A stretch of 64,000 bases of DNA from Roseibacillus sp. (lineage in GTDB: Bacteria; Verrucomicrobiota; Verrucomicrobiia; Verrucomicrobiales; Akkermansiaceae), in NCBI GenBank assembly GCA_965242925.1, contig CBDEUM010000018.1, positions 32,001-96,000 on the forward strand. The letters run 5' to 3'. The position numbers were made by a program, and so were the translations under genes. Shown here piece after piece: positions 9,587 through 39,454 of the stretch. The number at the start of each line of letters is the position of its first letter. The first letter of the stretch is position 1. The notes below the pieces were generated by a model. The model had not been told where the DNA came from. It saw nothing but the letters and a program-made list of their open reading frames with translations, and ran no database searches.

Positions 9587-9590
9587 GGGT

Positions 9591-20930: not shown

Positions 20931-22673
20931 TTATTCATCTTCCGCTCCGCCCAGGGTCACGTTGATATTGTATTTGTTCTGAAGGTGGGCGTGGGCCCGG
21001 GCTGCCTGCTTGCTTTTCGGGTAGCGTCTGCAGGTGAGCTGGAAAGTGCGGATGGCGTTCTTGGCCTCCTTGGCTTCCTCGTAGGTGTAGGCGATTTCAA
21101 GGGTGGCCCTCGGAGCTGAGGCATCGTTGACCAGGCATTGCCTGTAGAGAGCGACAGCCTCCTTGTGCTCTCCGATCCTGCGATGGCAGATCGCCATGGC
21201 GAAGTGGGTTTTGGGGAAATCGTCGATCTGGCGGTACATCCCGATAGCCTTCTTCCACTCCGACATGCTTTCGTAGCAGCCGCCGATGGACCACTGGTAG
21301 CCCGGGGCGTTCTTGCCGTTGAGATCGATGAGCTTGACGAACACGGCGATGGCCTCGTTGAACTTGCTCATTCCCTGGTAAATCTGCGCGATCGTCTCCA
21401 GGTAACCGACCTCGTTGTCGCTGTTGAGAGCGATCAGCCGATGAAGCACCTTGATGGCCTCGGCTGGCTGCTTCACGGATTGGAGCATGGTGGCCAGTGC
21501 CTCGAGTCCCGCCACCCTGTTGTCGTACTCTTCGTAAAGCCGCCGGGCATTCTTGATGTTCTCCCGGCTCATGTGCCACTGGGCCATGCGCCCGCGGAGG
21601 TCGTCATTCCGTCCAAATTTCTCCTCTACCTCCTCGTAGATGGTCCAGATTTTGTTTGGACGGCCCAGCGTTCCGTGCAGGCCGGCGATACGGTAGAGAT
21701 GACTCCTGGCATTCTGGGAATCTTCAATGGAGTCCCGACGCACCTGAGCGATGAGCTGGTCGCCGAGTTTGAGGGCGGACCGCCTCGTCTTATCCTCCTT
21801 GAGGAGGTGGTTCATGGTCTTGACCGTCATGTCGAAGACCACCTGGATGAGTTTCTCGTCCTTGTAGCTGGTGGCCAGGGCCTTCCTGCCGGCAGCGAAG
21901 TCCTGGGCGAAGAAATACATGGTGGCGAGTTCCTGGCAGGACTGGACACAGGCGCTGGTGCTCCACTCCGTGCGTTTCATCACGTAGGTCAGGCCCTTCA
22001 GGATCTCGAGAATCCCGTCGCCGTTCTGGTGCAAGCGGGCGTAATGAAGGAGGTCGAGCGAGGAGCGCAGGGAGAGCGGAGTATCCGGGTATTCCTTGAG
22101 GACGAATTGGAAGGCGTTCTTTGCTTTTTTGACTTCTCCCATCTTCCGGTAGGCGTCGCCAATGCAGTAAGCCGCCACATTGGCAGAATGTGATTCGGGC
22201 CAGTAGTCGATGACCGACTGGAACCCTTCCCGCAGGGCGGTCTTGACCTTCTTGAGATGGATCTGGGTGTGGCTCCACATGAGTTGGGCGTAGGGAGCGC
22301 CGGGGCTCTTCTCGTAGAGGGTGAGGAACTTTTCATACTCCGCCAGGGCGACCTTGTAGTTCTTGCTGGTGTAGTACTTTTCGGCGATCTTGAGCTGGTA
22401 GCGTTCAACCTCCCGCATTTTTTCGAAGACGGGGAGGGGGATCTGCTCGAGGTCCGAGAGTGCATTGGCGGAGAGGGGGAAGAAGGCGAGCAGCAGCCCT
22501 GCCAGCGGTGCAAGCGTGGGGCCGCGATCCCGGGCCGGAGGGCGGGAGACCGTGGCAGGAAGCCAGCTCCGAAGGTGATCCGACCTGCGCTTCTTTGTGG
22601 GACGGGGGTTGTTCCCGTCCCTGCTTTCCGGCTCCCTTCCGGAGCTCAGTCTTCCTTGGTTGCCTCGAGCCAT
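20931..22673 (-). CDS. Exported tetratricopeptide repeat protein
   Basis: Multiple TPR-like units (YEKFLTLYEKSPGAPYA, FQSVIDYWPES, AF.FVLKEYPDT, FQLTCRRYPKSKQAARA). The signal-like segment lies about 55 aa after the only in-frame canonical start, so the start is uncertain. Confidence 0.8.
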   Translation of the reverse strand: MARGNQGRLSSGREPESRDGNNPRPTKKRRSDHLRSWLPATVSRPPARDRGPTLAPLAGLLLAFFPLSANALSDLEQIPLPVFEKMREVERYQLKIAEKYYTSKNYKVALAEYEKFLTLYEKSPGAPYAQLMWSHTQIHLKKVKTALREGFQSVIDYWPESHSANVAAYCIGDAYRKMGEVKKAKNAFQFVLKEYPDTPLSLRSSLDLLHYARLHQNGDGILEILKGLTYVMKRTEWSTSACVQSCQELATMYFFAQDFAAGRKALATSYKDEKLIQVVFDMTVKTMNHLLKEDKTRRSALKLGDQLIAQVRRDSIEDSQNARSHLYRIAGLHGTLGRPNKIWTIYEEVEEKFGRNDDLRGRMAQWHMSRENIKNARRLYEEYDNRVAGLEALATMLQSVKQPAEAIKVLHRLIALNSDNEVGYLETIAQIYQGMSKFNEAIAVFVKLIDLNGKNAPGYQWSIGGCYESMSEWKKAIGMYRQIDDFPKTHFAMAICHRRIGEHKEAVALYRQCLVNDASAPRATLEIAYTYEEAKEAKNAIRTFQLTCRRYPKSKQAARAHAHLQNKYNINVTLGGAEDE

Positions 22674-24067
22674 TTGTTGTATTCCGCGTGAGCGTAGAAG
22701 ATGATGTTCACTCCGAGCTGGAAGCAGGATTCCCAGATCTCGCGGGCTACCCCGGAGTGTCCGTCGGCCCAGGCATCGCCAATGTCGCCGGGATGGTAGT
22801 AGGTCACCAGACGACCATCAACCACCCAGCCAAGGGCATCGGTGCGACCATGCTTGGCGACATAGGGGAGCTTGGGCAGGGGGTAGGGGATCTGGTGGAT
22901 CTGGTGGTCAAGGTAGACCGTTATGGGTTCCACCCTGGGCAGAATCTTCTTCATCATGCCGACGAACTGACCTTCCCAGCCGCTGCTTCCCCCGTTGTCA
23001 CCGAAGAGCATGCCGTGCTTGTCGAGGAGATAGGAGCGCAGGATTTTGATCCCTTCCTCTCCCATCTGAATCTTCTGCTGGCCGGTCATGTAGACCATGG
23101 GAGGACTCTTGCGGGCCGGGAAGGCACGGAGGCGCTTGATATCCATGGGTTCGGGCCGGTCGCTGACGCGGTGCCCGGTGCGCACGCCATACTCGGTGAG
23201 CAGGTTAAGATCCGCTCCGCGGTCCATATCCTGTTGCCAGTCCCCCCCGTTGTACTTGAGACGGATGAAGCGCACCTTGCCGCGGGAAGTGCCTCCCGAG
23301 AATCCTGCACCCCGGCCTTCTCCCTGGCCCACCTTGTAGCGGTGAGCGGTTTCTTCGAGGAGCTGCAACCTGACATCGTCGATGGGGGGAGGATTGAAGA
23401 GGACGCTGCTGTAGGGGTTGATGATGTACTTCTTCTTGACCACCTTCTGAATCCTGACGACCTGTTTCAGACGTTCTTCCTCTCCGCCGCCGTAGGGCGA
23501 TTCGTAAATGGCGCAACCGGTCATGCTGTTGAAAATGAGGAAGGTGACGAGAAAGAGGGCGCTGTAGGCGCCCAGAGTGGCGGTGGACTGCCAGAGCTTG
23601 GGATTGCGGCGGCCAAAGTACCAGGCCCATCGGCGGAGCGGGTTCCAGGTGCGCTGTGGGTGGGGCGAGGGAGCCAGTTGCTTGGTTTTGCGGTCGACCG
23701 CCCAGACCACCCAGCACAGTCCGATGAAAAAGGAGATGGCTGCTCCGGCGCGGGAGAAGGCGTCCGAGAGCCGGTAGGCTGAGAAGACGAGAGGAACGAC
23801 CAAGGTAAACTGCCAGAGCGGGAGGAAGCCCACACTGAGAATGCCGCGGTAGAGGAGCGGCGAACGGCGACGCCAGTAACGGGCCCAGGAGAGGGGCACG
23901 GCGAGAGCCAGTCCGAATCCAATGGCGTGATTGAGGGGTGCAAGGTGGAAAAACAGGTGGGCGTCGGCCCAGAGGACGAGCCAGAGAACGGAGGCGTAGA
24001 CGGTAAGCGCGACCGGCTTTCGGCAATGGCGCAGAAACCAAGGCCCCACCTGTTTCCAGCAATTCAT
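22646..24067 (-). CDS. Polytopic membrane protein with C-terminal DUF4159 domain
   Basis: About five N-terminal hydrophobic segments; RFIRLKYNGGDW, PMVYMTG, LRSYL...GMLFGDN, DHQIHQ.PY, D.GDAW, FQLGVNIIFYA. Confidence 0.85.
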   Translation of the reverse strand: MNCWKQVGPWFLRHCRKPVALTVYASVLWLVLWADAHLFFHLAPLNHAIGFGLALAVPLSWARYWRRRSPLLYRGILSVGFLPLWQFTLVVPLVFSAYRLSDAFSRAGAAISFFIGLCWVVWAVDRKTKQLAPSPHPQRTWNPLRRWAWYFGRRNPKLWQSTATLGAYSALFLVTFLIFNSMTGCAIYESPYGGGEEERLKQVVRIQKVVKKKYIINPYSSVLFNPPPIDDVRLQLLEETAHRYKVGQGEGRGAGFSGGTSRGKVRFIRLKYNGGDWQQDMDRGADLNLLTEYGVRTGHRVSDRPEPMDIKRLRAFPARKSPPMVYMTGQQKIQMGEEGIKILRSYLLDKHGMLFGDNGGSSGWEGQFVGMMKKILPRVEPITVYLDHQIHQIPYPLPKLPYVAKHGRTDALGWVVDGRLVTYYHPGDIGDAWADGHSGVAREIWESCFQLGVNIIFYAHAEYNKWLEATKED

Positions 24068-24564
24068 TCGAGTCCGTCGAGGAAATTGTCCCTCTTGTTC
24101 TCCAGCGGATTCTTGTTGGGAGAGGCCTGCTTTTCCTCTGTTACGCCGAGGTTGGACAGGTTCGGTGCGGTCGGAGCGAGGGGATTGGCTTCCTGATCGG
24201 GGGGAGAAGGAGCGGTTGGGTCGGACGCTGGCCTGGGAATGGCCGGTTCCGCGGCGGAGGGTTGGCCGGATTTTCCGGAGGGTGCTTTCTCCCGGGGTTT
24301 GCCGGCGCCTATCGCAAAGGGGATGGCTGTAAGGAGCAATCCACCCGCGAGGACGATCATGGTGGAGATGCAGATGGCGCGGAAGAGCTGACTGGCTGCA
24401 ACGATGCCGAGCATCTCCTGCGGAGATCTGTCCTGGAGTTGTTTGAGAAAGCTCTTTAGCTCTGCTACGGTAGCGTTGCTGCTACTCCGAAGGTTGCGTA
24501 ACTCGCTCTTCGGGTTCGCCATGGGTTGAGGCGGATCTTCGCTGCTCTCGGGCTGGATTTTCAT
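24064..24564 (-). CDS. Hypothetical single-pass membrane protein with Pro-rich tail
   Basis: ELK.FLKQL..RSPQEMLG.VA.S.L, one long hydrophobic segment, then a P/A-rich C-terminus; 4-nt overlaps with both neighbours. Confidence 0.75.
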   Translation of the reverse strand: MKIQPESSEDPPQPMANPKSELRNLRSSSNATVAELKSFLKQLQDRSPQEMLGIVAASQLFRAICISTMIVLAGGLLLTAIPFAIGAGKPREKAPSGKSGQPSAAEPAIPRPASDPTAPSPPDQEANPLAPTAPNLSNLGVTEEKQASPNKNPLENKRDNFLDGLE

Positions 24565-24974
24565 GACTCGGGTTCCGGTTCTGGTTCAAGAATGTGGACG
24601 AGGTCGCCACCGGCTTCCCCGATGGCTTGAATGACGGGTTCAAAGTGTCGGGCCTGCGCTTCCCGGTGGACTTTCAGGAAGACGTTGCGCTGTCCGGCGG
24701 GAGTCTTCCCGAGGATGGCGTTGAGGCGGGGACCGAGCAGCTCGTTCTTGATCTCTTCGCCATTGAGGTAGGTCTTGTAGGCGCTGTCGATGGCCACATT
24801 GGCGAGGGTGGCGCCGGCCCCTTCCAGATCGGAGAGAATGGCGGGGTCCCATTGCACGTGGCTGTCGTCCTGCACGCGGGCCAGGATGACGAAGAATATC
24901 AGAAGCAGAAAGCCGATGTCGCCCATCGCGAAGGAGGGAACAGTGGCGGCCATCTTTCGGCGTGCGATCTTCAT
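24561..24974 (-). CDS. exbD: ExbD/TolR family biopolymer transport protein (second copy)
   Basis: AMGDIGFLLLIFFVI TM with the conserved Asp; YLNGE; V.LKV.REA..F..V..I..AG. Confidence 0.88.
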   Translation of the reverse strand: MKIARRKMAATVPSFAMGDIGFLLLIFFVILARVQDDSHVQWDPAILSDLEGAGATLANVAIDSAYKTYLNGEEIKNELLGPRLNAILGKTPAGQRNVFLKVHREAQARHFEPVIQAIGEAGGDLVHILEPEPEPES

Positions 24975-25072
24975 CTACTCAACAGGTGAGATCCATCCGC
25001 GCCTGTTGGTGGCACTGCCGTGATTGCGGAAGGCGGCGGAGTCGCGGGGATGGGTTGTGGCTGGATTCTCAT
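24971..25072 (-). CDS. Candidate 33-aa Pro-rich small ORF between the two exbD genes
   Basis: MRIQPQPIPATPPPSAITAVPPTGADGSHLLSR. ATG is 1 nt after the upstream stop and its TGA overlaps the next ATG (ATGA). Codon usage is atypical. Confidence 0.3.
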   Translation of the reverse strand: MRIQPQPIPATPPPSAITAVPPTGADGSHLLSR

Positions 25073-25073
25073 T

Positions 25074-25496
25074 TCAATCCACGGTAATGGTTCGTTCGCT
25101 CTCCAGTTCGAGGGTGATCACTCCGCCCGCATCATCGATGACCTGCGAGACCCGGATCCAGTGGTCGTAGGGCGTTTTCGGAGCGCTCTTTACGACCACT
25201 ACCTTGTCTTCAGGGCGCTTCTTGGCCTGCAGGGCGGCGGCGAGACGGCGGCGGAACTCGTCCAGATTGAGAGGACTGCCGTTGAGCACGATGCTGGTGG
25301 GGGTGATGGAGACCTCAAGGTTCCTGCTCTGCTGCTTGCTGTCCTGCTTTTCCTCGGTGCGTGGCAGGGTCTGGGCCATTCCGGTTTCAGGTTGCACGGA
25401 GGCACAGACCAGGAAGAAGATGATGAGAATGAAGGCGATGTCCGAACTGGACGCAGCCGGAGGATCAACCAGGAGCTGACGACGGGGGAGCTTCAC
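25074..25496 (-). CDS. exbD: ExbD/TolR family biopolymer transport protein (first copy)
   Basis: GTG start overlapping the exbB stop; SSDIAFILIIFFLV with the conserved Asp; LP; VLNG; VVVKS...PY..W..V...I..AG. Confidence 0.9.
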   Translation of the reverse strand: MKLPRRQLLVDPPAASSSDIAFILIIFFLVCASVQPETGMAQTLPRTEEKQDSKQQSRNLEVSITPTSIVLNGSPLNLDEFRRRLAAALQAKKRPEDKVVVVKSAPKTPYDHWIRVSQVIDDAGGVITLELESERTITVD

Positions 25497-26257
25497 TGTT
25501 CCTTGTTCAGGGTCAGATGGAGGCTGACCACTTCGATGAGTTCCGCTGCGGAAGACTCCACCTGCAGGACGAAGTCGTTGATGATTCCGGTGAAGTAGTT
25601 GAAGGCCATGTAGGCGGGGATTCCCACACACAGTCCGAAGGCGGTGGTGAGGAGAGCTACCCGGATTCCCGCCGCAGCAGCCTGCACGATGTTCTGCTGA
25701 CCCACGTTGGCCTCGATGTCGCCGAAGGCCACGATCATTCCCTGCACGGTGCCGAGGAAGCCCAGCATGGGCGCCACACTGGCAATGGTGGCCAGCAGGG
25801 GAAGGTGTCGCTCAAGGGCGGCCACGATATGCACCCCGGAGTTCTCCATGCTTTTTATGACCTGTTCCTCAAGCTGGGCCTGGTCATATTTCAGGCGGCG
25901 CAGGACGAGATACTTGCGCAGGCCACTGGAGAGGACGGCGGGAACCGGACCCTGTGATCTGTCACAGAGGCTGAGTGATTCCTCAACCCTGTCCTCGGAG
26001 AGCAGGGTGGTCACTTCCTCGCGCAAGCTGCTGGAATCGACTTCCAGCAGCTTGAGACTGCGATAGCGCTCGATCACGACTGCAAGGACCAGGATGAGAA
26101 GGATGAGGATGGGCCACATGAAGATTCCCCCTTCCAGGAAGATGCCGATCGCACCGCTGCTGAAGAAGTCCCGGAAAAACTCCATGGCCTTGTTCAGTGC
26201 CCCGGTGGTTTCCTCGGAGGCGGCAGATTGGGCAAGCAGGGGGGGGAGGTATGGCAT
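25493..26257 (-). CDS. exbB: MotA/TolQ/ExbB proton channel family protein
   Basis: GGIFMWPI; LATIASVAPMLGFLGTVQGMI.AF; GI.VALLTTAFGL.VGIPA (conserved Thr and Pro residues intact). Confidence 0.95.
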   Translation of the reverse strand: MPYLPPLLAQSAASEETTGALNKAMEFFRDFFSSGAIGIFLEGGIFMWPILILLILVLAVVIERYRSLKLLEVDSSSLREEVTTLLSEDRVEESLSLCDRSQGPVPAVLSSGLRKYLVLRRLKYDQAQLEEQVIKSMENSGVHIVAALERHLPLLATIASVAPMLGFLGTVQGMIVAFGDIEANVGQQNIVQAAAAGIRVALLTTAFGLCVGIPAYMAFNYFTGIINDFVLQVESSAAELIEVVSLHLTLNKEQ

Positions 26258-26268
26258 GGGGGTATGGG

Positions 26269-29200
26269 TTATTCGTCGTCCAGGTTCGCTTCGCGTTCAA
26301 ACTGGGCCAGCATCTCGGGCAGGGCAAGACGTCCGCGGGCATACTTGGCAGCGTCGGACTCGGGAAAGTCCCAGCGACAGAGGTTGTAACGCCGGAAGGC
26401 GTTGGGAACGTCGTTGTCCATGCGGTAGCTTTCCCCTGCCCAGAAGAGTGCCTGGGCGGTGAGTTCCTCTTCCGGGAAGCGCTTGACGAACTCGTCGAAG
26501 GCGGTTCCCGCCTTCTCATAGGACTCGTCCTTGTAGTGGCACTGGCCGATCCGGAACCCCATCTTGGGCGTCCATTCGTGGTTGGGGAACTTCTCCAGGA
26601 ATTTCACTCCCACGCTGGCAGCCACCGGGTAGTCCTCCTTGTTGTAGAAGTGCTCGTTGATGCGGAGCATGACATTGGCGATGAGGGGGCTCTTTGGATA
26701 AGTGGCAGCCAGAGTGACGTAGGACTCAAGCGCCTCGTCCAGTTGAGCAGCCTGTTCGTAGCACTGGCCGAGCTTGTACTGGGCGTCCGGAGCCAGCTTG
26801 TGTTCGGGATATCCCCGGACGATGGACTTATAGGCCGCGATGGCTTCATCCCATTCCTTCAACTCCTGTGCAAACTGTCCCAGAAGGTAGGCAATACGTG
26901 GCGCATATCTTGGATGAGGGTAGTCTTCCTTCACCTCGCGCAGGACCCGTCGTCCCAGGCTCAGATTGGCCAGGGCCTCTTCTTCCTGCTCCAGTTTGAG
27001 GTGGCTCTTGAAGAGTTCAAAGTAGCTCTCCGCAATGTGGAACTGGGTCTGGATGGCGAGATCCTCATTCTTGTAGACCTTGCTGAAGGCGGACATGATG
27101 CCGTCCGTTCCTACTGCGACGGGAAGGCCCACCGTAATGATGGGCTCACCCTCGGCCGTGTGGATCACGTTGTCGAGATAGCCCACCGTGAGGGCGTCAC
27201 CGAAAAAGCACTCCACCTCACCCTGTGAGTTGCCGGGGGCAGGCTGGGTCGAGGACTTGAGAGGGAAAGAGCCGCTGAAGATCCCGCTATGACTGAGAGT
27301 CTCTTCCACTTCAAGGGTTTCGTCCTCCCCCGACCCGGTCTTGACCCGGATCAGGGCCTTGTCCCGTTCGCCCGAGATGTCGAGGTCGGGGTCCTTGAGC
27401 CAGAGGTAGATCTTCTTGCCCAAATAGGCAATCTCGGCGTCTTCCTGGTATTCCTCGTCGGTAAGGCGGAGAGTGGCGGCGGTGGCGAGTTCGGCGTGGG
27501 CGGCTCGTTCTACGGCCTCGCCGGAGGGTCGGCGCTCGTCCTGATAGCGGGTTACGAACCTGTCCTGGCCGTTCACATTGAGGACGAGGAGACCAGGTTC
27601 CCGCTCTGGACCTCCATCCAGGAGATCCCCCTCCGCTGCGGGTGGCGGCAGGACGCGCCCCAGTCCGGGGCGTGCGATCGTGCCGTCCGCAGGGACGGAG
27701 GCCGCGCTGTTGAGATCGCCCAGGAGCAGGGGGACCTGCCCCACGAACCGTCCTTCCCAGAGGGCAGCATTTCCGACCTGGTCAACTTCCTCGGTGGCCG
27801 GGGCAAACCCGCGGGAGAGGACGCATTCCACCTTCACGCGGGAACCCTGCGTGGTTTCCACTTCCACGGTCACCGTACTCTGGGAGTCCTTGGCCTGGTC
27901 CGGGTCGATGACTTCCACGGTGAGAGGCAGATAATAGTCGATCTTACTTACATGGTCGGTGGGACGGGTTGCCGCCACCGGGACAAAGGTGCGTTCACCC
28001 TCCACAGCCTTCACGCTGTCAACGATCTGCAGGATCGCCTCCGTCGGCTCGTTGAGAAGGACCACCGCCTCGCGGTAGGAAGCGTGACCGGGGAAGGTGT
28101 TCTGCTCGTCCTTGTAGCGAAGGTAGATCTTGTCACCCTGTTTCACCACCAGCTTTTCGCCGTCGGGCTGGGCAGCAGTATCGATTTCGGCCACGAAGAT
28201 CCCGGTGGAAGTCCCGGTTTCAGTAGCGGTCAGGGAGCGGCGTGTATTGGCATTGACCTGGACCTGCACTTCGACGGAGTCCTTTCCGCTGGTGGTGTCC
28301 AGGTCGTAGTCGACCACTTCAGCCACGATGCGCTCGCCAGGCTCGATCCGCAGGAGTTCCTTGCGCGCCCCCCTCACCGATCCGTCTCCACCGCGAATGA
28401 AGTTGTAACTGATAGGCGTGATTCCGCCGTTGTGGTAGGTGGCGGTCAGGCGGGCGGTGAGCAGCTTGTTGCGCTGGGCGCCCCCCGCGGTGATCTCGTC
28501 GAGGTAGGAAACCTCCACCGTGTCACCGGGGGCCAGCTCAAGAATGTCATTCCCGGCCAACTGGAGGACATCCTGCTCCGGTGGCACGTGCAGGGTTGCT
28601 CCACCCCTTACCTCGATGTGATTGACGGCGACGGCTTCCCCCCGGTACTCGAGAATTTGATATTCAAGAAAGCGCATCTCGTGGGAGGGAAGGGACAGTC
28701 TCCAGACATTCTCCTGCTGGGTGATGAGGCCTTCGAGCGGTCCCTCGATCCGGGGGAAGTCCGCGGCCCGGCTCAGGTCGAAGTCCTGTTCATTAAAATT
28801 ACGGAGGGTTACGCTGGCAGTCTGGGCATTGTCCCGGGCCCGGGTGGCGCTTCCCGCTTCCCCTCCGGCCGAGACGATGGAGACCACGGTAATGGTGTGT
28901 ACTCCCGCCCTGGCGTAGATATCCGCTTCCCGGCCACCCTCCCCCATGGGCAATTCAAGGCGGCCATCGATCATGAGACCGGTGTGTTGACCGGTCACCG
29001 AGAAACGCATCCCACCTTCCCTCTCCTGAAAGAACCTGCCGGACCAGACGAGGAAGAACGCGTCCTCACCCTCTCCCGGTGGTGACCAGGAGAGCCGCGT
29101 GACGTTTTCCTCAAGGTCAGGGTTGATCTTCTCGACGAGGCTTACGATATCTTTCCAGGCGTAGCTTTGGAGCAACTTGCTCTTCTGGGTCTTGTAGAGG

Positions 29201-32200
29201 CGCATGGTCATTTCCCCCTCTCCGAAGGTGATGGGAGTATTCCGCTCCGGGGTTGGAAAGCGGGCCAGGGTGTACCAGAAGCGTCCGTCGTGGCTTCCGC
29301 GAAGGTGCAGGCGCACGGGAGCCTCCCTTTCGGCATCCGGGGACATGAGGGAGATAGTGTCGACCTCCCGAAGTTCCTTCAGATCGATGGACAGTGTCTT
29401 GGGGGCTGCGCCGTCGGGTTCACTACGCCATGCAGTGTCCTTGCTGTGGTCGATGGCCATCAGCGCGCTGTGGTCGAGGGCGGAGTCACTGGCCCGTGCC
29501 CCGGCGGGAAGTTCCCCGGTGGGCACGGTGCCGCTGAAGATGCCACCGTGCTGGCTTTCTTCCGGGATTTTCGTCTCTACCTGGTCGCCGCTGGAGGCTT
29601 TTAGAACGATGGGCACTCCATCCGGTTCCCTGGTCAGGTCGCGGTCGCCATCCTTCACCTGTGTATAAATGAGATTGCCGGGTTTGATCTGGTCGCGGGG
29701 ACGCTGATGGGCCTTGCCCTGGTCCTCAGCGACCTCCTGGTCCTTTCGTTGCAGGGCTTCCGTGAAGGATTCGTTCTCCTCGTCGAGGATCGCACTGCTG
29801 GCTACGGCGAGGCTGCCGTCGGAGGCCACCTTGAGGCGGGTGGCACTCAGGAATTCGAACTGGAACTCCTTCTTGAACTCGGCCGGATAGTCGACCGTAA
29901 TGGTGTCTCCGCCGGTAACCTCAAGGGTTCCGCTCTCAACCTGGGCCACTCCCAGAGCGGTGGGGAGATCGGACAGGAAGATGCCCTTTCCAGCGCCGCC
30001 GCTGACGAGGAAGGACTTCTCGACATCGCCGCCGGGGTCGGTGCGCACGACCACCGGGATGCGCGTTTCCCCCCGGCTGATCCCGAGATCAGTATCCTGG
30101 ACCACCACCGAAAGGGCCTTCCCCGGAGTGTGCCAGAGCTTCGATTCGCGTCCGAGCCGGCCCACCGTGCGGAGGGTTTCGAGCTGGGTGAGGTAGCGTT
30201 GTTCGATGCCGTAGACCTCAGCCAGGTTGAAGAGAGTTTCGTTGGCGAGTTCAGCGTCCGGAGCGCGTTCGAGGACGGAGAGAAAGATCCTGCGGGCCGC
30301 CACATTGTTTTCCTGCCTGATCTCAAGAACACCAAGCAGGAACTCAGCGCGAATATTGACCTGCGGGTTGGGGTTCTCGGAGAGCTCAAGGAAGATCTCC
30401 CCGGCCTGGTCGTAAACCTTCTGCGCCATGAATGTCTCCCCGATACCGAACCGGGCCTCTACGGCTTCGGGCTGATCCTTGTAGTGATTGAGGACGGAGG
30501 TGAACTCCGCGCGGGCGACATCGTACTGTTGCGAGCGCTGGTAGTTGCGGGCCAGAAGAAGTTGCACGCGGGCCTTGTCCCTGACTTCCACGCTTCCAGA
30601 CTCACCGTTCTTGATAAGCCATCCCCGCAGGATGTCTTCAGCACGCAGGTGATCTGCTTCCGTTCCCTGGCTGATATGGGCCTCCGCCCCGAAGAGGATG
30701 AGTTCGACCGGCAGGTCGGCCTGGTTCTTGTCGAAAAGCTGCCGGTTCCGGTAGTAGGCCTGCTCGGCCAGCTCTTCTTCACCCAGTCGGAGGTGGAGGA
30801 TAATCTGGAGGAGGGGAGCGATGGGGCTGTCTTCCGGAATATCGGCACTGAGGCTGCCCATCTTTCCGTAGGCCTTGCGCAGGAGTGCGCGTGCGTCATT
30901 CAATTCCTTTTCCCCTACCCCGCGAATGATGTGGATCAGGCCGTTGAGAACAGTGGCCCCCATCTGATGATCTCCGCGTGCGATGGCTCCCTGGGCGTAG
31001 GGGTAGATGCGGCGCCAGCTTTCGTGGTGCTGGTTGGAAAAGAGAATGACGCGGTAGGCTTCGCGGAGGCGGGTCATGCCCCTGGGTGCGCTGGCGAGGA
31101 GTTCCAGGGCTGCCTCGGTGCTCACACGTGGCAGGTTGAGGGCGCCGACGATTCGGTAGACCTGGGCCTTCTGGTCGGCATTCCACTCCTTGGAGGCTCG
31201 CGCAGTTTCCAGCCAGCCACGGGCTGGGAGTTCCCCGATGCGACCGGAGCGGAAGGGATGCTTCACCCGCTGCCCGATGGCATTCTTCATGATGAGATCC
31301 ATCCGGGGCAGATCACCGGCCCGGAATGCGAGGTCGGCGAGGGCGTTGGAGTGGGTACCCGGATGGTAGCTGGCGGATGCCTGGCGCAGTTTCAGGAAGG
31401 CGGAGGCCTGGGCGGGTTCCAGCCTGGCTGCTACCCGTTCGGCACAGTTGACGCATTCCTGGTGATCAGGAGCAATGTTCATCCGACCGCGCCACCATGC
31501 GATGGCCTCCTCCTTCATCTCGATTTCCCACATGATGTCACCGATGCGGGTGGTGTGATAGAGCGGATTGGAGCTGAGGGGAGAGGCCTTTGCAATCCAG
31601 GGGAGGGCTTTACGGATAATCATGGGATCGCGCGTGTCGATCAGCCGCTGCCAGGTATTCGGGGTGGTGGCCTGCGGGGGAAAGGTGAGGACATGGCGGG
31701 CGGCGGCGGCCTGCATTTCCTTGGCCTGGTCACTGTAAGTGGCAGCTTCCAGCCACTTCTGGGCTCCTGCGTAGTCCTTGGGGAATTCGGAGCAGAGTTG
31801 ACGGTAATGCTCGGCGGCCTTCTTCTGTGAGGTGCCTCCGAAGTGATGGAGATAGTTGTAGGCGAGTGTGGTGAGGAGGAGGCGGCGCAGCTCCGGAGGC
31901 TGTTTCTGCTGGAGAAGTTGTTTGCAGGCTTGTCCCGACTTTCCGCCGGGTTCCCCGACCTGGACCCACAGGCGAGTGTTGGTTTCATTGCTGAAAGTCT
32001 TGCGTGCACCCTGCCAGGACCGGTTACGCTTGGCGTCCTTGAGGCTCACGTTTGCGATGCGCTCCTGGAAACCCCGCAGGTGGAGATGCTTCCGCGCGCA
32101 TGTCAGGATGAGTTTAATATCCGCAAGGAAGGTGGCCTCGTCAGGGGCGGTTCGGAGGAGGTAGGCAATGGTGTATTCTGCCAGGCTGTCTCCGGTTGGG

Positions 32201-33438: not shown

Positions 33439-35646
33439 CTACTCTTCCGGTGCCGGGGCAACAGCCTTCTTCAGGGCGTCGACAATCTTCTTGGCTTCCG
33501 GCGCGATTTCGCTTTCAGGAAAGTCGTTGATCAACTGGTCGAAACGTCGCCGGGCCTCCTGCTTGCGTCCGAGCTTGTAGAGGCAGCGGCCGTAGTTGAA
33601 GAGGATGACATCGAGAAAGTTGGCGTCGGGGTAGTCGGCGAGCACGTTTTCAAAGACGTCGACGGCCCGGGCGTAATCTTCCTTCTGATAGTAAAAGGCC
33701 GCCATCTTGGCCACCGCATCACCGATGCGGCCAGACTCCGGGAAGTTTTCGTAGACAGCCTGATAGGCGAGGAAGGCCTTCTCGAAGAGCCTTGAGGCCT
33801 GCTCGGCAGTGGACTTGAGAGCCATCGCCTCGTAGCACTCGCCCACGAAGAACTGCCCCTCGCCGCGCAGACTGCTATTGGGAAGTTTCGCGATGGAGGA
33901 ATAGAGTCCGATGGCCCGGGAAAAGTTCTCGCGTTTCCGCTCCACGTGAGCCTGCTGCAGCATTGCTTCGTCAACGAAGGTGCTGGCGGGAAACTCGGTC
34001 TGCAGACGCCGACTCATGGCGAGAGCGAGGTTGAGTTCGTCCATTGCGAAGTAGATCCGCCAGAGCTGGACGTAGGTTTCCTCAAGGAGTTTGCCGCCGG
34101 CCTTTCGGGCCTCCTCCAGAATGCCCTCGCACACGATGAGGGCCTCGCCGTACTTGAGATCAGCCTTTTCCTTCAGGCCGAATTCCTTGTAGTGGTTGCC
34201 TACCTGGGTAAGGGCGGTGGCGGTGCGGAGCTTGGTTTTGAGTTGCAGTTCCTCGTCGGAAATCTCGGTGCGGGTCACTCGCATCTCTCCCAGGTTGCCC
34301 TCAATCACCCGGGCCTCGGCGGTGCGCGTGAGGGAGTCCTCGCCGAGGTGCCGCTTGTCGAGGTAGACCAGTCGCACCACCTGTCCGGGGTCGGCATGGA
34401 GGGCGTCGGGCACTCCGCTCCCCGGATGCAGGGGGACGGCAAGGCGAAAGACCCCGTTTTCAGCACTTTCACGCAGTTGAACCGGAAGCGAGCGCACCAG
34501 CTTGAGCGGATCGATCAGGTCCTTGAGGGTCCCATCCTCGGGGGCTTCTTCCAGTTCGCCGTTGGCCACCCTTTCCGCGATCTCCTCGTCGATCTCATCG
34601 GGAGTCTTGCGGCTGTAGACCTGCACGGTGGCCTCCAGGCGGTCGGCCTGCGGGGTGAGGTCGTGGTCGGCATCGGAGACCTGGAGGTGGAGGCGCTTGC
34701 CCAGGACCGCAGCCTGGAGGTCGTGCTGGTAGGTTCCATCCGCGATGCGGGCGATGCCGTTCCCAATTACCAGGACTTCCTTGAGGCGCTGCTCGTTGGT
34801 GCCCTTGTCGGTGGTGTGCCTGTCGAGGTAGATGACAGTGATGAGGTCTCCTCCCCGCACCTCGAGAATTCCATTGCCTGGTTCAGGGCTTCCAAGCTGT
34901 GTCACAATGCTGCCCAGGGTTATCTTGGCATTCCGTCCGACAGTATCGCAGAGAATCTTTTCCCGGTCCCCCGTCTTCGTCTGGCAGATCACTTCGACCT
35001 GCTCTCCCGGTTCCAGGATGGCGAAGTCCCTGTCATCGATCTTGATGAAGAGGCGTTTGCCGGCCTCCACTTTTTCGATTCTGGCATCGTTGTCGGAAAG
35101 GGCGGTGCCCACCTTCTCAAGTGCTTCGATGGCACGGCTGTAGTGCCCCTGTTTGAAGTGGCCAAGCCCGATATAGTAGTAGGCCTCATTGACTTCGGAC
35201 GCCGCGGGAAAGTTCTCGATCACCTGCCGCATGATCTTGAAGCAGTTGCCGTAACGCCCCGCCTCATAGTAGCAGGTGCCCGTGTTCAGGAAGGCGTAGG
35301 CCCGCAATTGGTCGTTGGGATTGGCCTCCTGGGCGGCGGCCTGATAGTGGGCGCGGGCCTTGTCGAACTGGCGCAGTTCCTGCAGGAGATGATCGGCGAG
35401 ACGCAGGTGTGCCTCGAAGCGGACCGGGCTGCGCGGGTAGCGCTCGATGACCGATTCCCAGATCTCAAGGGCCTTTTCATTTTCTCCCACCTCGAGTCGG
35501 GCATCCCCCGCTTGCAGGAGCTTGCGGGCGGCCCGGTCTTCAACGATGGATCCGCGTTCTGCGGCTGCCGGCTGCTGGGCAACGGCCACCGGGAGGAAGG
35601 TGGCAAAGGGAAGGCAGGCGAAGAGTGAGAGAACGGCGCGTGGCAC
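33439..35646 (-). CDS. Exported TPR protein with two DxD beta-sandwich modules
   Basis: GTG start 7 nt after the DUF1501 stop; signal peptide; TPRs (VIERYPRS, VIENFPAA..NEAYYYIG, LINDFPESEIA); central DxD...GD.I.V.YLD modules. Confidence 0.85.
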   Translation of the reverse strand: MPRAVLSLFACLPFATFLPVAVAQQPAAAERGSIVEDRAARKLLQAGDARLEVGENEKALEIWESVIERYPRSPVRFEAHLRLADHLLQELRQFDKARAHYQAAAQEANPNDQLRAYAFLNTGTCYYEAGRYGNCFKIMRQVIENFPAASEVNEAYYYIGLGHFKQGHYSRAIEALEKVGTALSDNDARIEKVEAGKRLFIKIDDRDFAILEPGEQVEVICQTKTGDREKILCDTVGRNAKITLGSIVTQLGSPEPGNGILEVRGGDLITVIYLDRHTTDKGTNEQRLKEVLVIGNGIARIADGTYQHDLQAAVLGKRLHLQVSDADHDLTPQADRLEATVQVYSRKTPDEIDEEIAERVANGELEEAPEDGTLKDLIDPLKLVRSLPVQLRESAENGVFRLAVPLHPGSGVPDALHADPGQVVRLVYLDKRHLGEDSLTRTAEARVIEGNLGEMRVTRTEISDEELQLKTKLRTATALTQVGNHYKEFGLKEKADLKYGEALIVCEGILEEARKAGGKLLEETYVQLWRIYFAMDELNLALAMSRRLQTEFPASTFVDEAMLQQAHVERKRENFSRAIGLYSSIAKLPNSSLRGEGQFFVGECYEAMALKSTAEQASRLFEKAFLAYQAVYENFPESGRIGDAVAKMAAFYYQKEDYARAVDVFENVLADYPDANFLDVILFNYGRCLYKLGRKQEARRRFDQLINDFPESEIAPEAKKIVDALKKAVAPAPEE

Positions 35647-35653
35647 GATGCTC

Positions 35654-36907
35654 TTATACGAGCAGTTCCCGGATGGGCTGTCCATCTTTCCGCAATAACC
35701 GCATGGGCCTGCCCTGCTGGGTGATGATTTCCCGGTTGTGATCGATTCCGAGGGCGTGGCAGACGGTGGCGTGGAGGTCAAAAGGCTTCACCGGACGTTC
35801 GGCCGGGTCCATCCCGTCCTCGTCGGATGCCCCGATGATGGTGCCGCCCTTGATGCCGCCGCCAGCCATGAAGGCACTGAAGACCCGGGCCCAGTGGTCA
35901 CGTCCACCCCCGTCGTTGATGCGTGGCGTCCGTCCGAACTCGGAGAGGACCAGCACCAGGGTCTTGCTTAGCAGGCCGTTGGCCTTGAGGTCGCTCAGGA
36001 GAGAGGCGAGGGCGGGATCCATGGTTGCCCCGTGGTTGCGCATGGCTTCGAAGATGGTGCCGTGGTTGTCAAAGCCGCCGCGGTTGACCTGGACAAAGCG
36101 TACGCCTTTTTCCACCAGGCGTCGCGCGAGGAGGGCGCCTCGTCCGAACTCGGTGTTGCCATAGCGCTCCACCGTGGCGGGATTCTCCTCGTTCAACTCG
36201 AAGGCTTTCAGAGCAGGACTTTCCATCAGGGCAATGGCATCCTTGAGAGCAGTTTCGGAGGCCTTGAGCTTGCGGGCATCGAGCTGGTCCGACGTGCGCG
36301 CATTCATTCTCGCGAGGATCTCAAGGCGCTTCTTTCCGCGTGCGTGGTGAATGCCCTCGGGGAAGGCGAGGTAGGGATCCTTTTCGCCGGGACGGCCCAC
36401 GTAGTAGGCTTCACACTGCTGGCCGAGGTAGCCTGCGCGGGCCGGGTTGCCACTGATGCTGATGTAGGCAGGAAGGTCGCCCAGGGGATCGCGCTCGTGC
36501 ACAACGATGGAGCCGAGGCCGGGGTGCATCACGTTGGGAGCCTGATTGAAGCCGGTCTGCAATTCATACTGTGCGCGCCCGTGGTCTCCATTGGTTCCCC
36601 GGATGGAGCGAATGAGAGCCGCGTTGTGCATCTGTCTGGCAAGTTCCGGAAAGATCTCGGAGATCTCCATCCCGGGCACGCTGGTCTTGATCGGGTTGAA
36701 TTCACCCTGCACCGGGCGTCCTGGCTTGGGATCCCAGGTGTCAAGGTGGCTCATGCCCCCGCTGTTCCAGAAGAGGATCACGTGTTCGGCAGTGCCACCT
36801 TTTCCGGGCGTCGCGGCGAGGAGATTGCTGATGGGCATTCCCAGAATTGAAGCGCTGAACATCTTCAGCATGTTTCTTCTGGTGTGGACGTAATCCTGGC
36901 AGCTCAT
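35654..36907 (-). CDS. DUF1501 family protein (third paralog)
   Basis: TRRNML; HVILFWNSGGMSHLDTWDPK; ALLARRLVEKGVRFVQV..GGFD.H; SEFGRTPRIN..GGRDHW; MAGGGIKGG.IIGASD. Confidence 0.93.
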   Translation of the reverse strand: MSCQDYVHTRRNMLKMFSASILGMPISNLLAATPGKGGTAEHVILFWNSGGMSHLDTWDPKPGRPVQGEFNPIKTSVPGMEISEIFPELARQMHNAALIRSIRGTNGDHGRAQYELQTGFNQAPNVMHPGLGSIVVHERDPLGDLPAYISISGNPARAGYLGQQCEAYYVGRPGEKDPYLAFPEGIHHARGKKRLEILARMNARTSDQLDARKLKASETALKDAIALMESPALKAFELNEENPATVERYGNTEFGRGALLARRLVEKGVRFVQVNRGGFDNHGTIFEAMRNHGATMDPALASLLSDLKANGLLSKTLVLVLSEFGRTPRINDGGGRDHWARVFSAFMAGGGIKGGTIIGASDEDGMDPAERPVKPFDLHATVCHALGIDHNREIITQQGRPMRLLRKDGQPIRELLV

Positions 36908-36916
36908 TTCGGGAGA

Positions 36917-36947
36917 GGTTCAAGTTTCAGGTTCAAAGTTTCAAGGT
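36917..36947. repeat. Short degenerate tandem repeat (TTGAAAC-like units on the minus strand)
   Basis: Minus strand ttgaaac-tttgaac-ctgaaac-ttgaac immediately upstream of the DUF1501 start. Confidence 0.4.
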
Positions 36948-37006
36948 GCGAGGATTGGAGAATTGGACACTGGGGATCGTTTCGAAATGAAAAGGTGGAG
37001 TTTCTG

Positions 37007-39454
37007 TCAGGGCAGGTAGCGGAACTCGTGGCTATTGAGCAGGGCCCAGCGGAGATCAGCCATGCCGCCCTTCGGTGTTCCGCCGGTTTTCAGGATCAGC
37101 TGAGCGTCGGCCAGTTCCTCGGTGGCGGGCAGGCGGGTCAGGATTTCCTGGTAGGCCCATTCGATGGCCCGCTTGTAGTTCTTGCGTTCCAGGAGCTTGT
37201 GGAGGGGCTCCATCGTGCCGACCCGCGATGCTTCGTGCGTCATGCGACCGTTCATCATCATGAGTTGCTGGCGCAGGGAAGCCTGCCCGTCGCGAAACTG
37301 GCCCAACCCGTCGCGCGCGGGCTGTCCGAAGACCCGCAGGAAGTGTGCCGGGGGTGCGGGGGTAGCCATCCTCATCGCGCTTCCGAAGCGCGGGTTGTCG
37401 TCGACCATCTCCTCCACCTTCTCGGTCCGGTACTTCATGACCATGCGCTTCTGCTCGGCCGCCTCGGCCGCCATCTTCCTGGCCTGGATCTGTTCGTTGG
37501 ACTTCCGGCGCATCTTCTCCAGTTCACTCATCTCCTCTTTCCGGAGGAGGGCGTTGAAATCGAGGGAGAGAGAGGACTCCAGGTCGTAGCCATCCATCCG
37601 CATTGCAGGCTTCGCGCTGGCCATCATCCGGGGAGTGGTCCCCTCCGGGGTGGCGGCCACCAGTTCCCCGGTGGGCACGTTGATTTCACGCACGACTTTC
37701 TTAAGGTTGGCGCCGGCGGGCCACTTGTGTTCGCCGATGTTTCCGGCCACCACCACGCTGTCGTAGAGGACTTCGCTGAGCATCCGGCGCAGGGGGGCGG
37801 CCGCGAAATTTTTCTCCGAGTGTTCCCGCCGGGCAATGGGAAGGGAACCGGAGAGGTGGGAGCGCTGGTAAGCGTCGCTCAGCATGATGAGCTTGATGAG
37901 ATGCTGCATCTCGAATCCGCTGGCGATGAATTCCTGGGCCAGGAAGTCGAGTGTCGAGGCGTGCCGCAGTTCATTGTAGTCGGAGAAGTTGTCGAGGGGT
38001 TCCACGAAGCCGTGGCCCACCAGTTCGGCCCACATGCGGTTCACGAAGGCGCGGGCAAAGTAGCCGTTGCGTGGGCTCGTGATGAGCTCGGCGAGCTGGT
38101 TGCGCAGGATACTGGCGCGGTAGATGTCGCCGAGGACATCAAGTTTCCTGCTCTCCTTCCTGGCTTCCTCGAGGACCACGTTCTTCCTGCGGCCAACGGT
38201 CGGATTCACCGAGTCGAGGAGGGCCTCAAGGGAGGCGTCCTCCGCCCCTGCGTCCGTCACCGCAGTCTGGGCGGATCGTTTTTTTTCAAAGCGGGTGAGG
38301 AAGGTCGGCAGTTTCCCGTAGTCGGTCAGGGCAAAGGGGAACCGGGGACTGACGGGCTTGCGCTGGTCGGCCTCCGCCCTGTCTTCCGGGGGCCAGAGAA
38401 CCATCATCTCGTGCCCCTCGGTGGTGTAGATCTGGTTGCGCTGACCGCCGCGCACCTGCCTGGTCTTGCCGAAGAAGGCCGCCAGTTCGTAGAAATCCTT
38501 CTGTTCCCAGTCGTCAAACGGATGGTCATGGCACTGCGCACAACCGATGCGAACTCCCAGGAAGACCTGCGAAGTGGTGGCCGCGAGCTCCATGGGGTCG
38601 GTGTTGTCTCCCAGGATGTAGCCAACCGCAGGATTGGAATTGGGCTTGCCGGAGGAACCGATGAGTTCCCTGACCATGATGTCGTAGGGCTTGCCTTGTT
38701 CGATCGACTTGTTGACGTAGGCGAGGAGCTGGTTGCCGCCCGTCACATTGGAACGAATACGCAGCATGTCGGCCAGGAAGATGGTCCAGCGGTCAGCAAA
38801 GCGTGGATGCTCGCACAGCTTCTCGATGAGTCGGGAGCGCCGGTCCTTTCCCCAGCCTTCGTAGAGCGCTACCTCCACCATGGTCGGAATCCGGCCGATG
38901 AGGTCGAGGGTTGCGCGGCGCAGGAAGGCCTCGTCACTGATCACCGGGGTGGTGATGACATCCCCTCCGAGGTTTTCGCGGCGGAGGATGTCATCGAGCA
39001 TGTGGGCAGCTTCCACCATATTGGAAGGAGTCTTCTTGGGCATGGCCACCCGTTTGACAGAAATGCGCTTGCGCTCGGTCAGGGTGATTCCCTCAGGCCA
39101 CTCCGCACCCGACTTGATCCAGGCGGTGAGCAACTCAAGTTCGTTCTTCTTAAGGGCTTGTCCTTCATCCGGCATGAAACCCTCGTCAATCGGGCGCAGG
39201 TGCGTGCGCCGGATGATTTCGCTTTCTCCGGGTTTGCCGGGGACGATGGCCTCGGCCTCCTCACCGCCTTCCAGCATGAGGGGGTGGGTTTCCATTCGCA
39301 GACCACCCTTGGCCTTACCCTGCTTGTGGCAACGGAGGCAGTTGGTCTCCAGGATGGGCTGGATGTCGCGCTTGAAGTTGAGCGCACCGGTGGCCCCCAG
39401 CGGCAGGAGCGCAAGGAAGATGATGTAGATGGACTGCGAAATGTGAGATCGCAC
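37007..39454 (-). CDS. Planctomycete cytochrome c (PSCyt1) + DUF1549/DUF1553 protein
   Basis: Signal peptide; F.RDI.PIL..NCLRCH...KGGLR...GG....IVPG.P..S....MP...W I..GA.WP; FLRRATLDLIGRIP; CAQCHDHPFD.W; NRMWAEL.G.G.VEP; DLRWALLNSHEF. Confidence 0.93.
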   Translation of the reverse strand: MRSHISQSIYIIFLALLPLGATGALNFKRDIQPILETNCLRCHKQGKAKGGLRMETHPLMLEGGEEAEAIVPGKPGESEIIRRTHLRPIDEGFMPDEGQALKKNELELLTAWIKSGAEWPEGITLTERKRISVKRVAMPKKTPSNMVEAAHMLDDILRRENLGGDVITTPVISDEAFLRRATLDLIGRIPTMVEVALYEGWGKDRRSRLIEKLCEHPRFADRWTIFLADMLRIRSNVTGGNQLLAYVNKSIEQGKPYDIMVRELIGSSGKPNSNPAVGYILGDNTDPMELAATTSQVFLGVRIGCAQCHDHPFDDWEQKDFYELAAFFGKTRQVRGGQRNQIYTTEGHEMMVLWPPEDRAEADQRKPVSPRFPFALTDYGKLPTFLTRFEKKRSAQTAVTDAGAEDASLEALLDSVNPTVGRRKNVVLEEARKESRKLDVLGDIYRASILRNQLAELITSPRNGYFARAFVNRMWAELVGHGFVEPLDNFSDYNELRHASTLDFLAQEFIASGFEMQHLIKLIMLSDAYQRSHLSGSLPIARREHSEKNFAAAPLRRMLSEVLYDSVVVAGNIGEHKWPAGANLKKVVREINVPTGELVAATPEGTTPRMMASAKPAMRMDGYDLESSLSLDFNALLRKEEMSELEKMRRKSNEQIQARKMAAEAAEQKRMVMKYRTEKVEEMVDDNPRFGSAMRMATPAPPAHFLRVFGQPARDGLGQFRDGQASLRQQLMMMNGRMTHEASRVGTMEPLHKLLERKNYKRAIEWAYQEILTRLPATEELADAQLILKTGGTPKGGMADLRWALLNSHEFRYLP

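Follow-up and report, generated by a model that had tools for sequence, protein, structure and literature searches.

The window analysed here, a 64,000-nucleotide stretch of Roseibacillus sp. DNA (positions 32001-96000 of contig C18 in the source assembly G000; 4.58 Mb, 42 contigs, 89.9% complete), contains on its minus strand, from 39454 down to 20931, ten co-oriented and closely packed open reading frames (ORFs), designated A to J (Table 1). This operon combines a DUF1549/DUF1553-DUF1501 gene pair (A and B) with tetratricopeptide repeat (TPR) proteins (C, D, and J), an ExbB-type motor protein with two ExbD paralogues (E, F, and G), and two membrane proteins (H and I), the second of which bears a DUF4159 domain. 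Domains were called using the curated cut-offs of Pfam together with NCBIfam models, defence families using PADLOC, and structural matches using Foldseek and the PDB. An earlier note on this DNA, made from the letters alone, had listed ten co-oriented genes with these domains, and the ORF list and Pfam bore this out. It had also stated that the operon lacks a TonB-dependent receptor, TolB/Pal, and MoxR; accordingly, the Pfam scan of the operon proteins found no TonB_C, TonB-dependent receptor, PD40/TolB, OmpA/Pal, or MoxR domain. When the PADLOC models, which cover anti-phage systems with MotAB-like parts such as Zorya, were compared with all 10 operon proteins, 0 families matched.

The genes are separated by 99 nt (A-B), 4 nt (B-C, using the 736-residue start of C), 18 nt (C-D), and 11 nt (D-E), and they overlap by 4 nt at E/F, sORF/G, G/H, and H/I and by 28 nt at I/J. 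These spacings agree with those of the earlier note except at B-C, where it had 7 nt. The extra small ORF that it counted between F and G (sORF) is unlikely to be a gene, because it was matched only in the closest relative (L031, 73%), and in L035-L041 no spacer separates F from G, which abut or overlap. Overlapping or near-abutting gene junctions were retained in the orthologous loci. Signal peptides were found in A, C, D, and J, none of them with a conserved Cys; B carries a twin-arginine motif.

Table 1. Features of the operon, with positions in the window
Feature	Position	Strand	Description	Basis
A	37007-39454	minus	815 aa, secreted; PSCyt1 + DUF1549 (PSCyt2) + DUF1553 (PSD1); two CxxCH motifs	Pfam
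B	35654-36907	minus	417 aa, DUF1501; twin-arginine translocation (Tat)-type motif TRRNMLK	Pfam, 354 bits
C	33439-35649	minus	736 aa, secreted TPR protein; beta-rich middle, CpoB/YbgF-like C-terminal TPR	Pfam, NCBIfam
D	26269-33420	minus	2383 aa, secreted; TPR at each end	Pfam, NCBIfam
E	25493-26257	minus	254 aa, MotA_ExbB; ExbB/TolQ-type stator protein	PF01618
F	25074-25496	minus	140 aa, ExbD/TolR paralogue 1; GTG start overlaps the stop of E	PF02472
sORF	24971-25072	minus	33 aa, F-G spacer; probably not a gene	
G	24561-24974	minus	137 aa, ExbD/TolR paralogue 2	PF02472
H	24064-24564	minus	166 aa, one transmembrane (TM) helix, Pro/Ala-rich stretch	No Pfam or NCBIfam family
I	22646-24067	minus	473 aa, five predicted TM helices + DUF4159 (266-459)	Pfam
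J	20931-22673	minus	TPR protein, secreted, about 500-580 aa, start uncertain	Pfam

Conservation of the operon and its older core

Orthologues were sought in 61 genomes (G000 and 60 relatives) with protein I and with protein B (the latter at E<=1e-150), and up to 20 kb was fetched around 11 of the I-orthologue loci; co-occurrence counts in this set describe a pattern and not a statistic, the related genomes being non-independent. Full-length I orthologues were present in 13 of the 61 genomes, G000 included, and one further partial copy lay at a contig end. In all seven orthologous loci of sufficient length, the order A-J was intact at 55-98% identity: four are from the same genus (G012, G002, G014, and G009), one is from another genus (G027), and two are from other families (G060 and G047), the intact order spanning four families within one order. 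Four loci clipped at contig ends agreed as far as their sequence extends. The genes flanking the operon were common only within the genus and differed outside it. Because the A-J order is the same in other genera and families while these flanks change, the arrangement, judged by comparison of the loci, is far beyond chance.

A B orthologue was found in 15 of the 61 genomes and an I orthologue in 14, both occurring together in 14; the sole genome with B but not I is a 70% complete assembly. B lies immediately upstream of C in 14/14 genomes where both were located, and in four more genomes B shares the strand of I and precedes it by 11.7-13.1 kb, the distance expected if the full order is kept. 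Conservation of gene order in relatives had been set beforehand as the test of the earlier proposal that these genes form one conserved unit, and the proposal stood: the order was kept in 7/7 loci, including those of other genera and families, and B and I co-occur. Two sub-blocks, A-B-C-D and E-F-G-H-I-J, can be distinguished. In the split clusters (G061, G062, G063, and G367), A-B-C(-D) was still together; it lies on the same contig as E in G061, with about 13 kb between D and E (L117/L139), and on contigs other than that of the motor block in G062 and G063, and in G367 B and C, with a doubtful A, are about 590 kb from D-J. Encoded in that interval of G061 are a Fic protein, a YgjP-like peptidase, and a type I restriction system, represented by its R subunit. 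The module of Rubritalea profundi (G064, L093) looks decayed, because a C orthologue is missing and the I gene (10001-11374) has an in-frame stop near its end. Across this set the module is accessory in distribution: it was not found in 46 of the 61 relatives, including 10-11 of the 19 genomes of the same genus.

A scan with one genome per species returned 482 stretches with relatives of I, and the locus counts rest on the best 80 of these 482. Among them, the order E-F-G-H-I was found in 61 of the 62 loci whose upstream flank reached 2.3 kb, and, where the flank was at least 9.9 kb, D lay upstream of E in 46 of 51 loci and C was followed by D in 39 of 51. Four of the five exceptions without D were examined further, those of G061, G062, G063, and G064. 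With a profile of I, a set of 1.84 billion proteins yielded 283 representative clusters at E<=1e-30.

More distant I-like proteins were sought in an even sample of 300 Verrucomicrobiota genomes and occurred in 15 of them, 34-41% identical from the fifth TM helix (TM5) onward; 16 loci were fetched, and the 15 with enough flank were counted. All 15 encode a D-like giant, a C-like TPR protein, ExbB, two ExbD proteins, a small H-like protein, and an I-like protein, and no DUF1501 or DUF1549 match lay within 20 kb of any of them. Further copies of this core, at 30-36% identity, were found in G023, G047, and G051. Three module types were distinguished: type 1 with the order D-(J-like)-C-E-F-G-H-I, type 2 with C-D-p120-E-F-G-H-I-K, and type 3, the operon of the window (A-J), the two-ExbD state being common to all three. 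The type-2 module of G051 has a 23S rRNA intervening-sequence/Avd-like gene (L044:13536-13919) between ExbB and the first ExbD. In a tree of the DUF4159 domain (quick method, 58 rows, support from the Shimodaira-Hasegawa-like approximate likelihood ratio test), the motor-linked domains stood apart from generic DUF4159 (91), and type 3 (98), type 2 (99), and type 1 (79) each formed one group.

The earlier note had treated the DUF1549/DUF1501 pair as integral to the machine. This did not hold, because the core stands without the pair in 15/15 distant Verrucomicrobiota loci; on this distribution, the core of seven gene families is older than A/B, which is a clade-specific addition. By the same comparison, A/B joined the head of the operon, and the further TPR protein J its tail, in the Verrucomicrobiales clade of the window. 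The simplest reading is that A/B was recruited once, at the origin of type 3, since the tested early-branching type-3 lineages (G062, G065, G363, G364, and G365) all carry a B orthologue.

The enzyme pair, the motor, and the scaffolds

G000 has 89 DUF1501 matches in its 4.58 Mb, about one per 50 kb, and the Pfam score of B (354 bits) compares with about 450-535 bits for most of them. B is 38-40% identical to its best in-genome paralogue and 63-98% identical to its orthologues, and A is 26% identical to its best in-genome paralogue and 47-95% identical to its orthologues elsewhere. With these differences and the constant adjacency of B and C, the pairing of A/B with the TPR genes is not a chance neighbour effect, despite the many DUF1501 matches in the genome. 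B retains 55 of the 61 columns that are at least 85% conserved among 40 in-genome paralogues, including D59, K61, H109, D280/H282, D337/H338, and D362 with paired D-H motifs, residues that we take to be metal ligands from the alkaline-phosphatase fold. In A, C39xxC42H43, M94, and C305xxC308H309 were invariant in 8/8 orthologues. A PDB search with the B sequence alone gave nothing useful.

Pairs of PSCyt1/PSCyt2/PSD1 and DUF1501 proteins are known, with unknown function, from Planctomycetes, Verrucomicrobia, and Lentisphaerae, and PSCyt proteins often bear carbohydrate-binding modules (CBMs) and lie near sulfatases, according to Kamneva 2012 (PMC3542564) and He 2017 (PMC5615132); the term ExbD is absent from the main texts of both. 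Our literature search found nothing treating DUF1501 together with DUF1553. A and B form such a standard pair, a signal-peptide PSCyt1/PSCyt2/PSD1 protein beside a Tat-signal DUF1501 protein, but here a single divergent orthologue group is fixed to a motor/TPR operon. The minus strand of the window carries another such pair with its genes the other way round (DUF1501 at 5989-7401, then DUF1549/DUF1553 at 3626-5785), preceded by an FG-GAP/ASPIC protein (7499-8947) and a 2139-residue ORF (9591-16010) with no Pfam match at E<=1e-6. Just upstream of A, a 923-residue secreted protein (39657-42428, minus strand) carries Laminin_G_3 and bacterial TSP3 repeats; among the fetched loci its gene was kept only in G002, so it is not part of the module.

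E matched PF01618 with 97.6 bits (cut-off 22.9), and F and G matched PF02472 with 64.3 and 38.6 bits (cut-off 25.4). The best NCBIfam match of E was TolQ (104 bits, under the cut-off of 221), and the best named match of F was TolR (33.2 bits, under the cut-off of 127.3). The TM residue Asp19 was invariant in 11/11 aligned sequences for F and for G, confirming the earlier observation that both ExbD helices keep the essential Asp. The translation of E contains LGFLGTVQGM and ALLTTAFGL, which may correspond to the segments of the essential E. coli Thr residues in the pore-lining helices. Read from the TM Asp of both ExbD paralogues, the motor signatures are intact, as are the enzyme signatures of A and B.

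The TPR proteins were compared with the YbgF/CpoB model TIGR02795 (cut-off 90.1), which C (99.8 bits) and D (129.2 bits) passed and J (85.8 bits) fell just under; the CpoB-like modules of C and D are the ends of 736- and 2383-residue proteins. D is laid out as a helical/TPR region (1-1100), a beta-rich region (1100-2100), and the CpoB-like TPR (2130-2383). The beta-rich middle gave a weak match to F5/8 type C at 1310-1395 (E 3e-5). Its PDB matches were weak as well: capsule depolymerases at E 7.5e-4, and at E 0.19 a sialidase chain that we presume represents a CBM32 module. The central region has homologues that span 99% of its length, those of type-1 modules included, where identity is down to 25%. 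J orthologues align from residue ~47-73 onward, and J follows I in all complete loci.

The putative transducers and the known motor systems

H-like proteins of all three types have a short cytoplasmic part, one TM helix, a Pro/Ala- or K/E/A-rich linker, and a short acidic-hydrophobic tail. H has a conserved cytoplasmic SPQEMLG motif and the acidic tail NPLEN..D.FL..LE, which is strongly conserved in type 3 as NPLE[ND]..D.FLKDLE, and it matched no Pfam or NCBIfam family at E<=0.01, TonB_C (PF03544) included; the automatic database name "SecG family" looks mislabelled and was not used. In the alignment, H has the layout of a transducer, an N-terminal TM anchor followed by an extended Pro-rich linker. 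A helix with SxxxH is a signature of TonB and TolA, according to PMC12204202. The pattern [STA]xxxH is present in the helix of 16/17 type-1/2 homologues of H, and SxxxH occurs in TM5 of I in 7/7 parsed type-2 proteins and not in type 1 (3 parsed). The His has been lost from both H and I TM5 in exactly the A/B-bearing clade, type 2 having both and type 1 that of H only; this joint loss may mean a changed mode of coupling. We infer that H is a derived, tail-only member, without the His, of a TolA/TonB-like transducer family. The earlier statement that the operon has no TonB was correct as to the absence of a TonB_C domain and is only partly right otherwise, because relatives of H in the sister types carry SxxxH helices.

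An AlphaFold2 model of I, built from a 32-sequence alignment, had a mean predicted local distance difference test score (pLDDT) of 70 and a predicted TM-score (pTM) of 0.47. It comprised a bundle of four membrane helices (pLDDT 83-91), a fifth helix (158-181), and an alpha/beta head, with residues 182-262 predicted to be disordered (pLDDT <40), a linker of about 80 residues that nevertheless contains many invariant positions. According to this model, I is also built like a transducer, with helix, flexible linker, and head. In a Foldseek search, the best match of the head was PDB 4i66 (E 4e-9, TM-score 0.78 on the target), with class-I glutamine amidotransferases and ThuA next; the matches listed included nothing of the vWA fold, and 13 related I-like proteins gave no vWA match in Pfam. 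TM5 ends in Gly-Cys (Cys185) in 87/91 homologues, and I may be lipid-modified at this residue, the lipobox reading being uncertain. A candidate Ser-His-Asp site in the DUF4159 domain (S361, H425, and D428) was dropped, these residues not being kept in 4i66. An FHA domain is present at the N-terminus of the I-like protein of L146 (4812-7019) and, by Pfam, a GYF_2 domain at that of the L127 orthologue of H (8907-9593); the H orthologue of L129 (9183-9851) shows a similar N-terminal extension in the alignment; such cytoplasmic add-ons hint at cytoplasmic regulation.

The head of I has the same domain fold as generic DUF4159 proteins (about 290-310 residues, in other contexts), represented by the uncharacterised Hoch_4089 (PDB 4i66). 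The motor-linked proteins differ in forming their own tree group, in adding the TM region, the Gly-Cys, and the conserved linker, and in motifs such as YHPGDxxDAW, which are not kept in 4i66. The earlier note had DUF4159 usually travelling with MoxR/DUF58/BatA; MoxR does lie beside a generic gene, but in only 1 of the 3 loci found, and no MoxR AAA, DUF58, or vWA gene was detected in the operon or in the rest of the scanned window. At that locus (L161; G044:C13, 5848-13219), the gene of a generic 307-residue DUF4159 protein has a TPR/Peptidase_MA gene on one side and a MoxR-type AAA_3 ATPase gene on the other, and ExbB and ExbD follow in the same direction, a DUF4159-motor link of another kind. 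Literature on DUF4159 beyond the Pfam database paper was not found.

G000 has seven ExbB loci (the operon and six others), one lone TonB_C gene (contig C13), three TonB-dependent receptors, four OmpA-family genes, none of them on the contig of the operon, and one DUF4159 gene. The six other ExbB loci lie on C14, C29, C30, C42, and C19 (L045-L050), several beside large TPR proteins; on C14, TPR-ExbB-ExbD is followed by two PD40 proteins of ~900 residues with squalene-cyclase-like repeats, and another locus reads ExbB-ExbD-TPR-TPR. The alternative that the ExbBD set is the ordinary Tol or Ton system was examined on this gene content: because the module was not found in 46 of the 61 relatives, and because G000 encodes TonB separately and ExbB at six further loci, the operon is not that housekeeping system.

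The operon shares with Tol-Pal a TolQ/TolR-type stator, a bitopic and extended TolA-like partner, and CpoB/YbgF-type TPR modules. It differs in having two TolR paralogues, in lacking TolA domain III, TolB, and Pal, in its accessory distribution, and in that E (104 vs 221) and F (33.2 vs 127.3) remain under the NCBIfam TolQ and TolR cut-offs. The likeness to the AglRQS-Glt machinery that the earlier note had drawn is limited to the arrangement of one plus two stator genes; the NCBIfam matches to GltE (17.5 vs 225) and CglD (19 vs 400) are far under their cut-offs. Ton systems with TPR accessories are similar in having ExbB with two ExbD (Fibrobacter), a TonB-like gene next to them, and TPR proteins that are required or co-regulated (PMC6851124 and PMC6957404); the operon differs in being without TonB_C or a linked receptor and in its giant scaffolds and DUF4159 protein.

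The earlier note had called the machine undescribed, which is not wholly so. PMC12204202 (2025) describes PVC (Planctomycetes-Verrucomicrobia-Chlamydiae) loci with the frame TPR-tolQ-tolR-tolR-transducer, in which the transducers have an SHLS/His helix joined by a disordered linker to a vWA head, and in its AlphaFold 3 models this helix sits on the motor; the supplement gives two transducers in one locus for Tichowtungia, and section 8 predicts transducer logic for PVC loci with this gene frame. The operon is alike in its TPR, tolQ-like, and two unlike tolR-like genes (D-E-F-G) before the transducers and in membrane-anchored proteins with a TM helix, a disordered linker, and a non-TonB head. 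It differs in that the head is DUF4159, class-I glutamine-amidotransferase-like and not vWA by Pfam and Foldseek, that H is headless, that the SHLS/His is absent in the type-3 clade, and that the DUF1549/1553-DUF1501 pair is attached. The "vWA" proteins of PMC12204202 could include DUF4159 proteins, the families being compared here by their descriptions. Beyond these PVC loci, our literature search found nothing on such operons in Verrucomicrobia or Planctomycetes.

Proposed mechanism and alternatives

We propose, at a probability of roughly 0.45, that the operon encodes a Tol/Ton-like envelope system of a kind conserved in Verrucomicrobiota, driven by the proton motive force, in which the motor handles a glycan-like polymer on periplasmic scaffolds. 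ExbB would form a pentameric stator around an ExbD1/ExbD2 heterodimer (a 5:2 motor). H would be a force transducer derived from TolA/TonB, its globular head replaced by a short acidic C-terminal peptide, and I a second client of the motor with its DUF4159 head on a conserved flexible linker. Both would act on the CpoB-like TPR scaffolds, whose beta-rich, CBM-like middle would hold the polymer. A, a dihaem-motif protein, and B, a Tat-exported DUF1501 enzyme with a putative alkaline-phosphatase fold, would be the clade-specific enzyme payload, which modifies or cleaves this polymer in the periplasm so that it can be taken up or turned over. Four points incline us to a glycan: the weak CBM-like matches of D, the PSCyt literature, the accessory distribution, and a Fibrobacter parallel, in which OmpA-TPR-TPR (FSU_2396-2398) and ExbB-ExbD-ExbD-TonB (FSU_2400-2403) rise on cellulose (PMC6851124).

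Several observations weigh against this proposal. The carbohydrate-binding hints in D are weak and under the Pfam cut-offs, and Pfam gave no carbohydrate-binding match in the two type-2 giants scanned. A/B says little on the function of the core, because the core works without it elsewhere. In type 3, [STA]xxxH was found in 0/76 H helices and SxxxH in 1/77 I TM5 helices, the one probably a chance match; motor coupling in this clade may differ or be lost, because neither helix keeps the His. The context of Cys185 is the canonical L-[STGA]-G-C in 55/87 homologues and MTGC in 17/87 (72/87 together), the rest deviating, and lipoprotein precursors do not usually have four TM helices upstream of the helix that the Cys follows, as I does. 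The operon encodes no outer-membrane component, the signal peptides of C, D, and J being without a conserved Cys. Consensus scans gave 3 promoter-like sites (3.8 expected from shuffles) and 15 terminator-like sites (17.8 expected), no excess in either case. Weak evidence in favour comes from contigs of RNA libraries (four marine runs, 95-100% alike), which match the operon, run X1 covering all 30 bins, and bridge the junctions A/B, B/C, C/D, and E/F; they lend slight support to expression of the operon, without evidence of a break, DNA carry-over being possible and such contigs telling neither strand nor level nor whether two bridged genes share a single transcript.

Envelope maintenance by an analogue of Tol-Pal, in which the motor, H, and the CpoB-like TPR proteins coordinate outer membrane and cell wall and A/B modifies an envelope component, would account for the C-terminal TPRs of C and D passing the YbgF/CpoB model (99.8 and 129.2 vs 90.1), for TolQ and TolR as the best named matches of E and F, and for the K/E/A-rich linkers of type-1 H-like proteins, which resemble TolA domain II. 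The alkaline-phosphatase fold also includes envelope-modifying transferases. However, the module is accessory, missing from most relatives including about half of those in its own genus, neither the operon nor its contig has a TolB/PD40 or Pal/OmpA gene, and the TPR-ExbB-ExbD-PD40-PD40 locus of G000 looks more Tol-like, so that we regard this explanation as rather unlikely. A motor for surface motility or surface-protein transport, of the AglRQS-Glt or GldLM kind, is very unlikely: one TolQ-like and two TolR-like genes, as in AglRQS, the secreted LamG/TSP3 protein just upstream, and weak NCBIfam matches of J to GltE and of that upstream protein to CglD speak for it, but both matches are far under their cut-offs, the upstream gene was kept only in G002, and the operon has no Glt, Gld, Spr, or type IX secretion system (T9SS) genes.

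Ton-like import, in which H and/or I would energise a gate in the outer membrane whose gene lies elsewhere, and the TPR giants would chaperone or guide the cargo in the periplasm, fits the frame of ExbB-ExbD-ExbD with a TonB-like gene and TPR proteins seen in Fibrobacter (FSU_2397-2403; PMC6851124), the TPR protein TtpD2 that is essential in the Vibrio TonB2 system (PMC6957404), and the three TonB-dependent receptors of G000 beside only one canonical TonB. It appears improbable all the same, since H has neither the TonB C-terminal domain nor the His, no receptor was linked in any examined locus, and the scaffolds sum to >3,600 residues, far above any known Ton accessory. That A/B and the motor cluster are two unrelated neighbours is largely refuted and hardly credible: although one of about 85 DUF1549/DUF1501 pairs could lie upstream by chance, given the 89 DUF1501 matches in 4.58 Mb, and although the core exists without the pair elsewhere, the same orthologous pair (B 63-98%, A 47-95%, vs at most 40% and 26% for paralogues) adjoins C in 14/14 genomes with a B-C gap of 4-7 nt, and pair and motor block share one presence/absence pattern over the genomes.

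A bolder form of our proposal, unlikely as a whole, is that proton-driven trans-envelope machines have a third lineage, in addition to Ton and Tol, to which the operon belongs. Two His-less transducers would link the ExbB-ExbD1/ExbD2 motor to giant glycan-binding TPR scaffolds, one ending in a docking peptide and the other, the DUF4159 protein, being released as an outer-membrane lipoprotein by cleavage at Cys185, and the dihaem DUF1549/1553 protein and the DUF1501 enzyme would work on the motor-fed polymer. If this were true, it would provide the first physiological role for the large DUF1501/PSCyt family of the PVC bacteria.

The distinctive feature of the locus is the fixed link of a Tol/Ton-like motor system, presumably of the 5:2 kind and with putative non-canonical transducers, to a DUF1549/1553-DUF1501 pair. 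It widens the set of Tol/Ton-like motors and has a modular history, an old TPR-motor-DUF4159 core with a later enzyme add-on, and the clade in which the hallmark His has been lost from both putative transducers is a natural test of helix-stator coupling. DUF1501 and DUF1549/1553 proteins occur by the dozens per genome in many Planctomycetes and Verrucomicrobia, and with one orthologue pair fixed to a multi-protein system whose motor can be genetically disabled, the DUF1501 family gains a testable setting.

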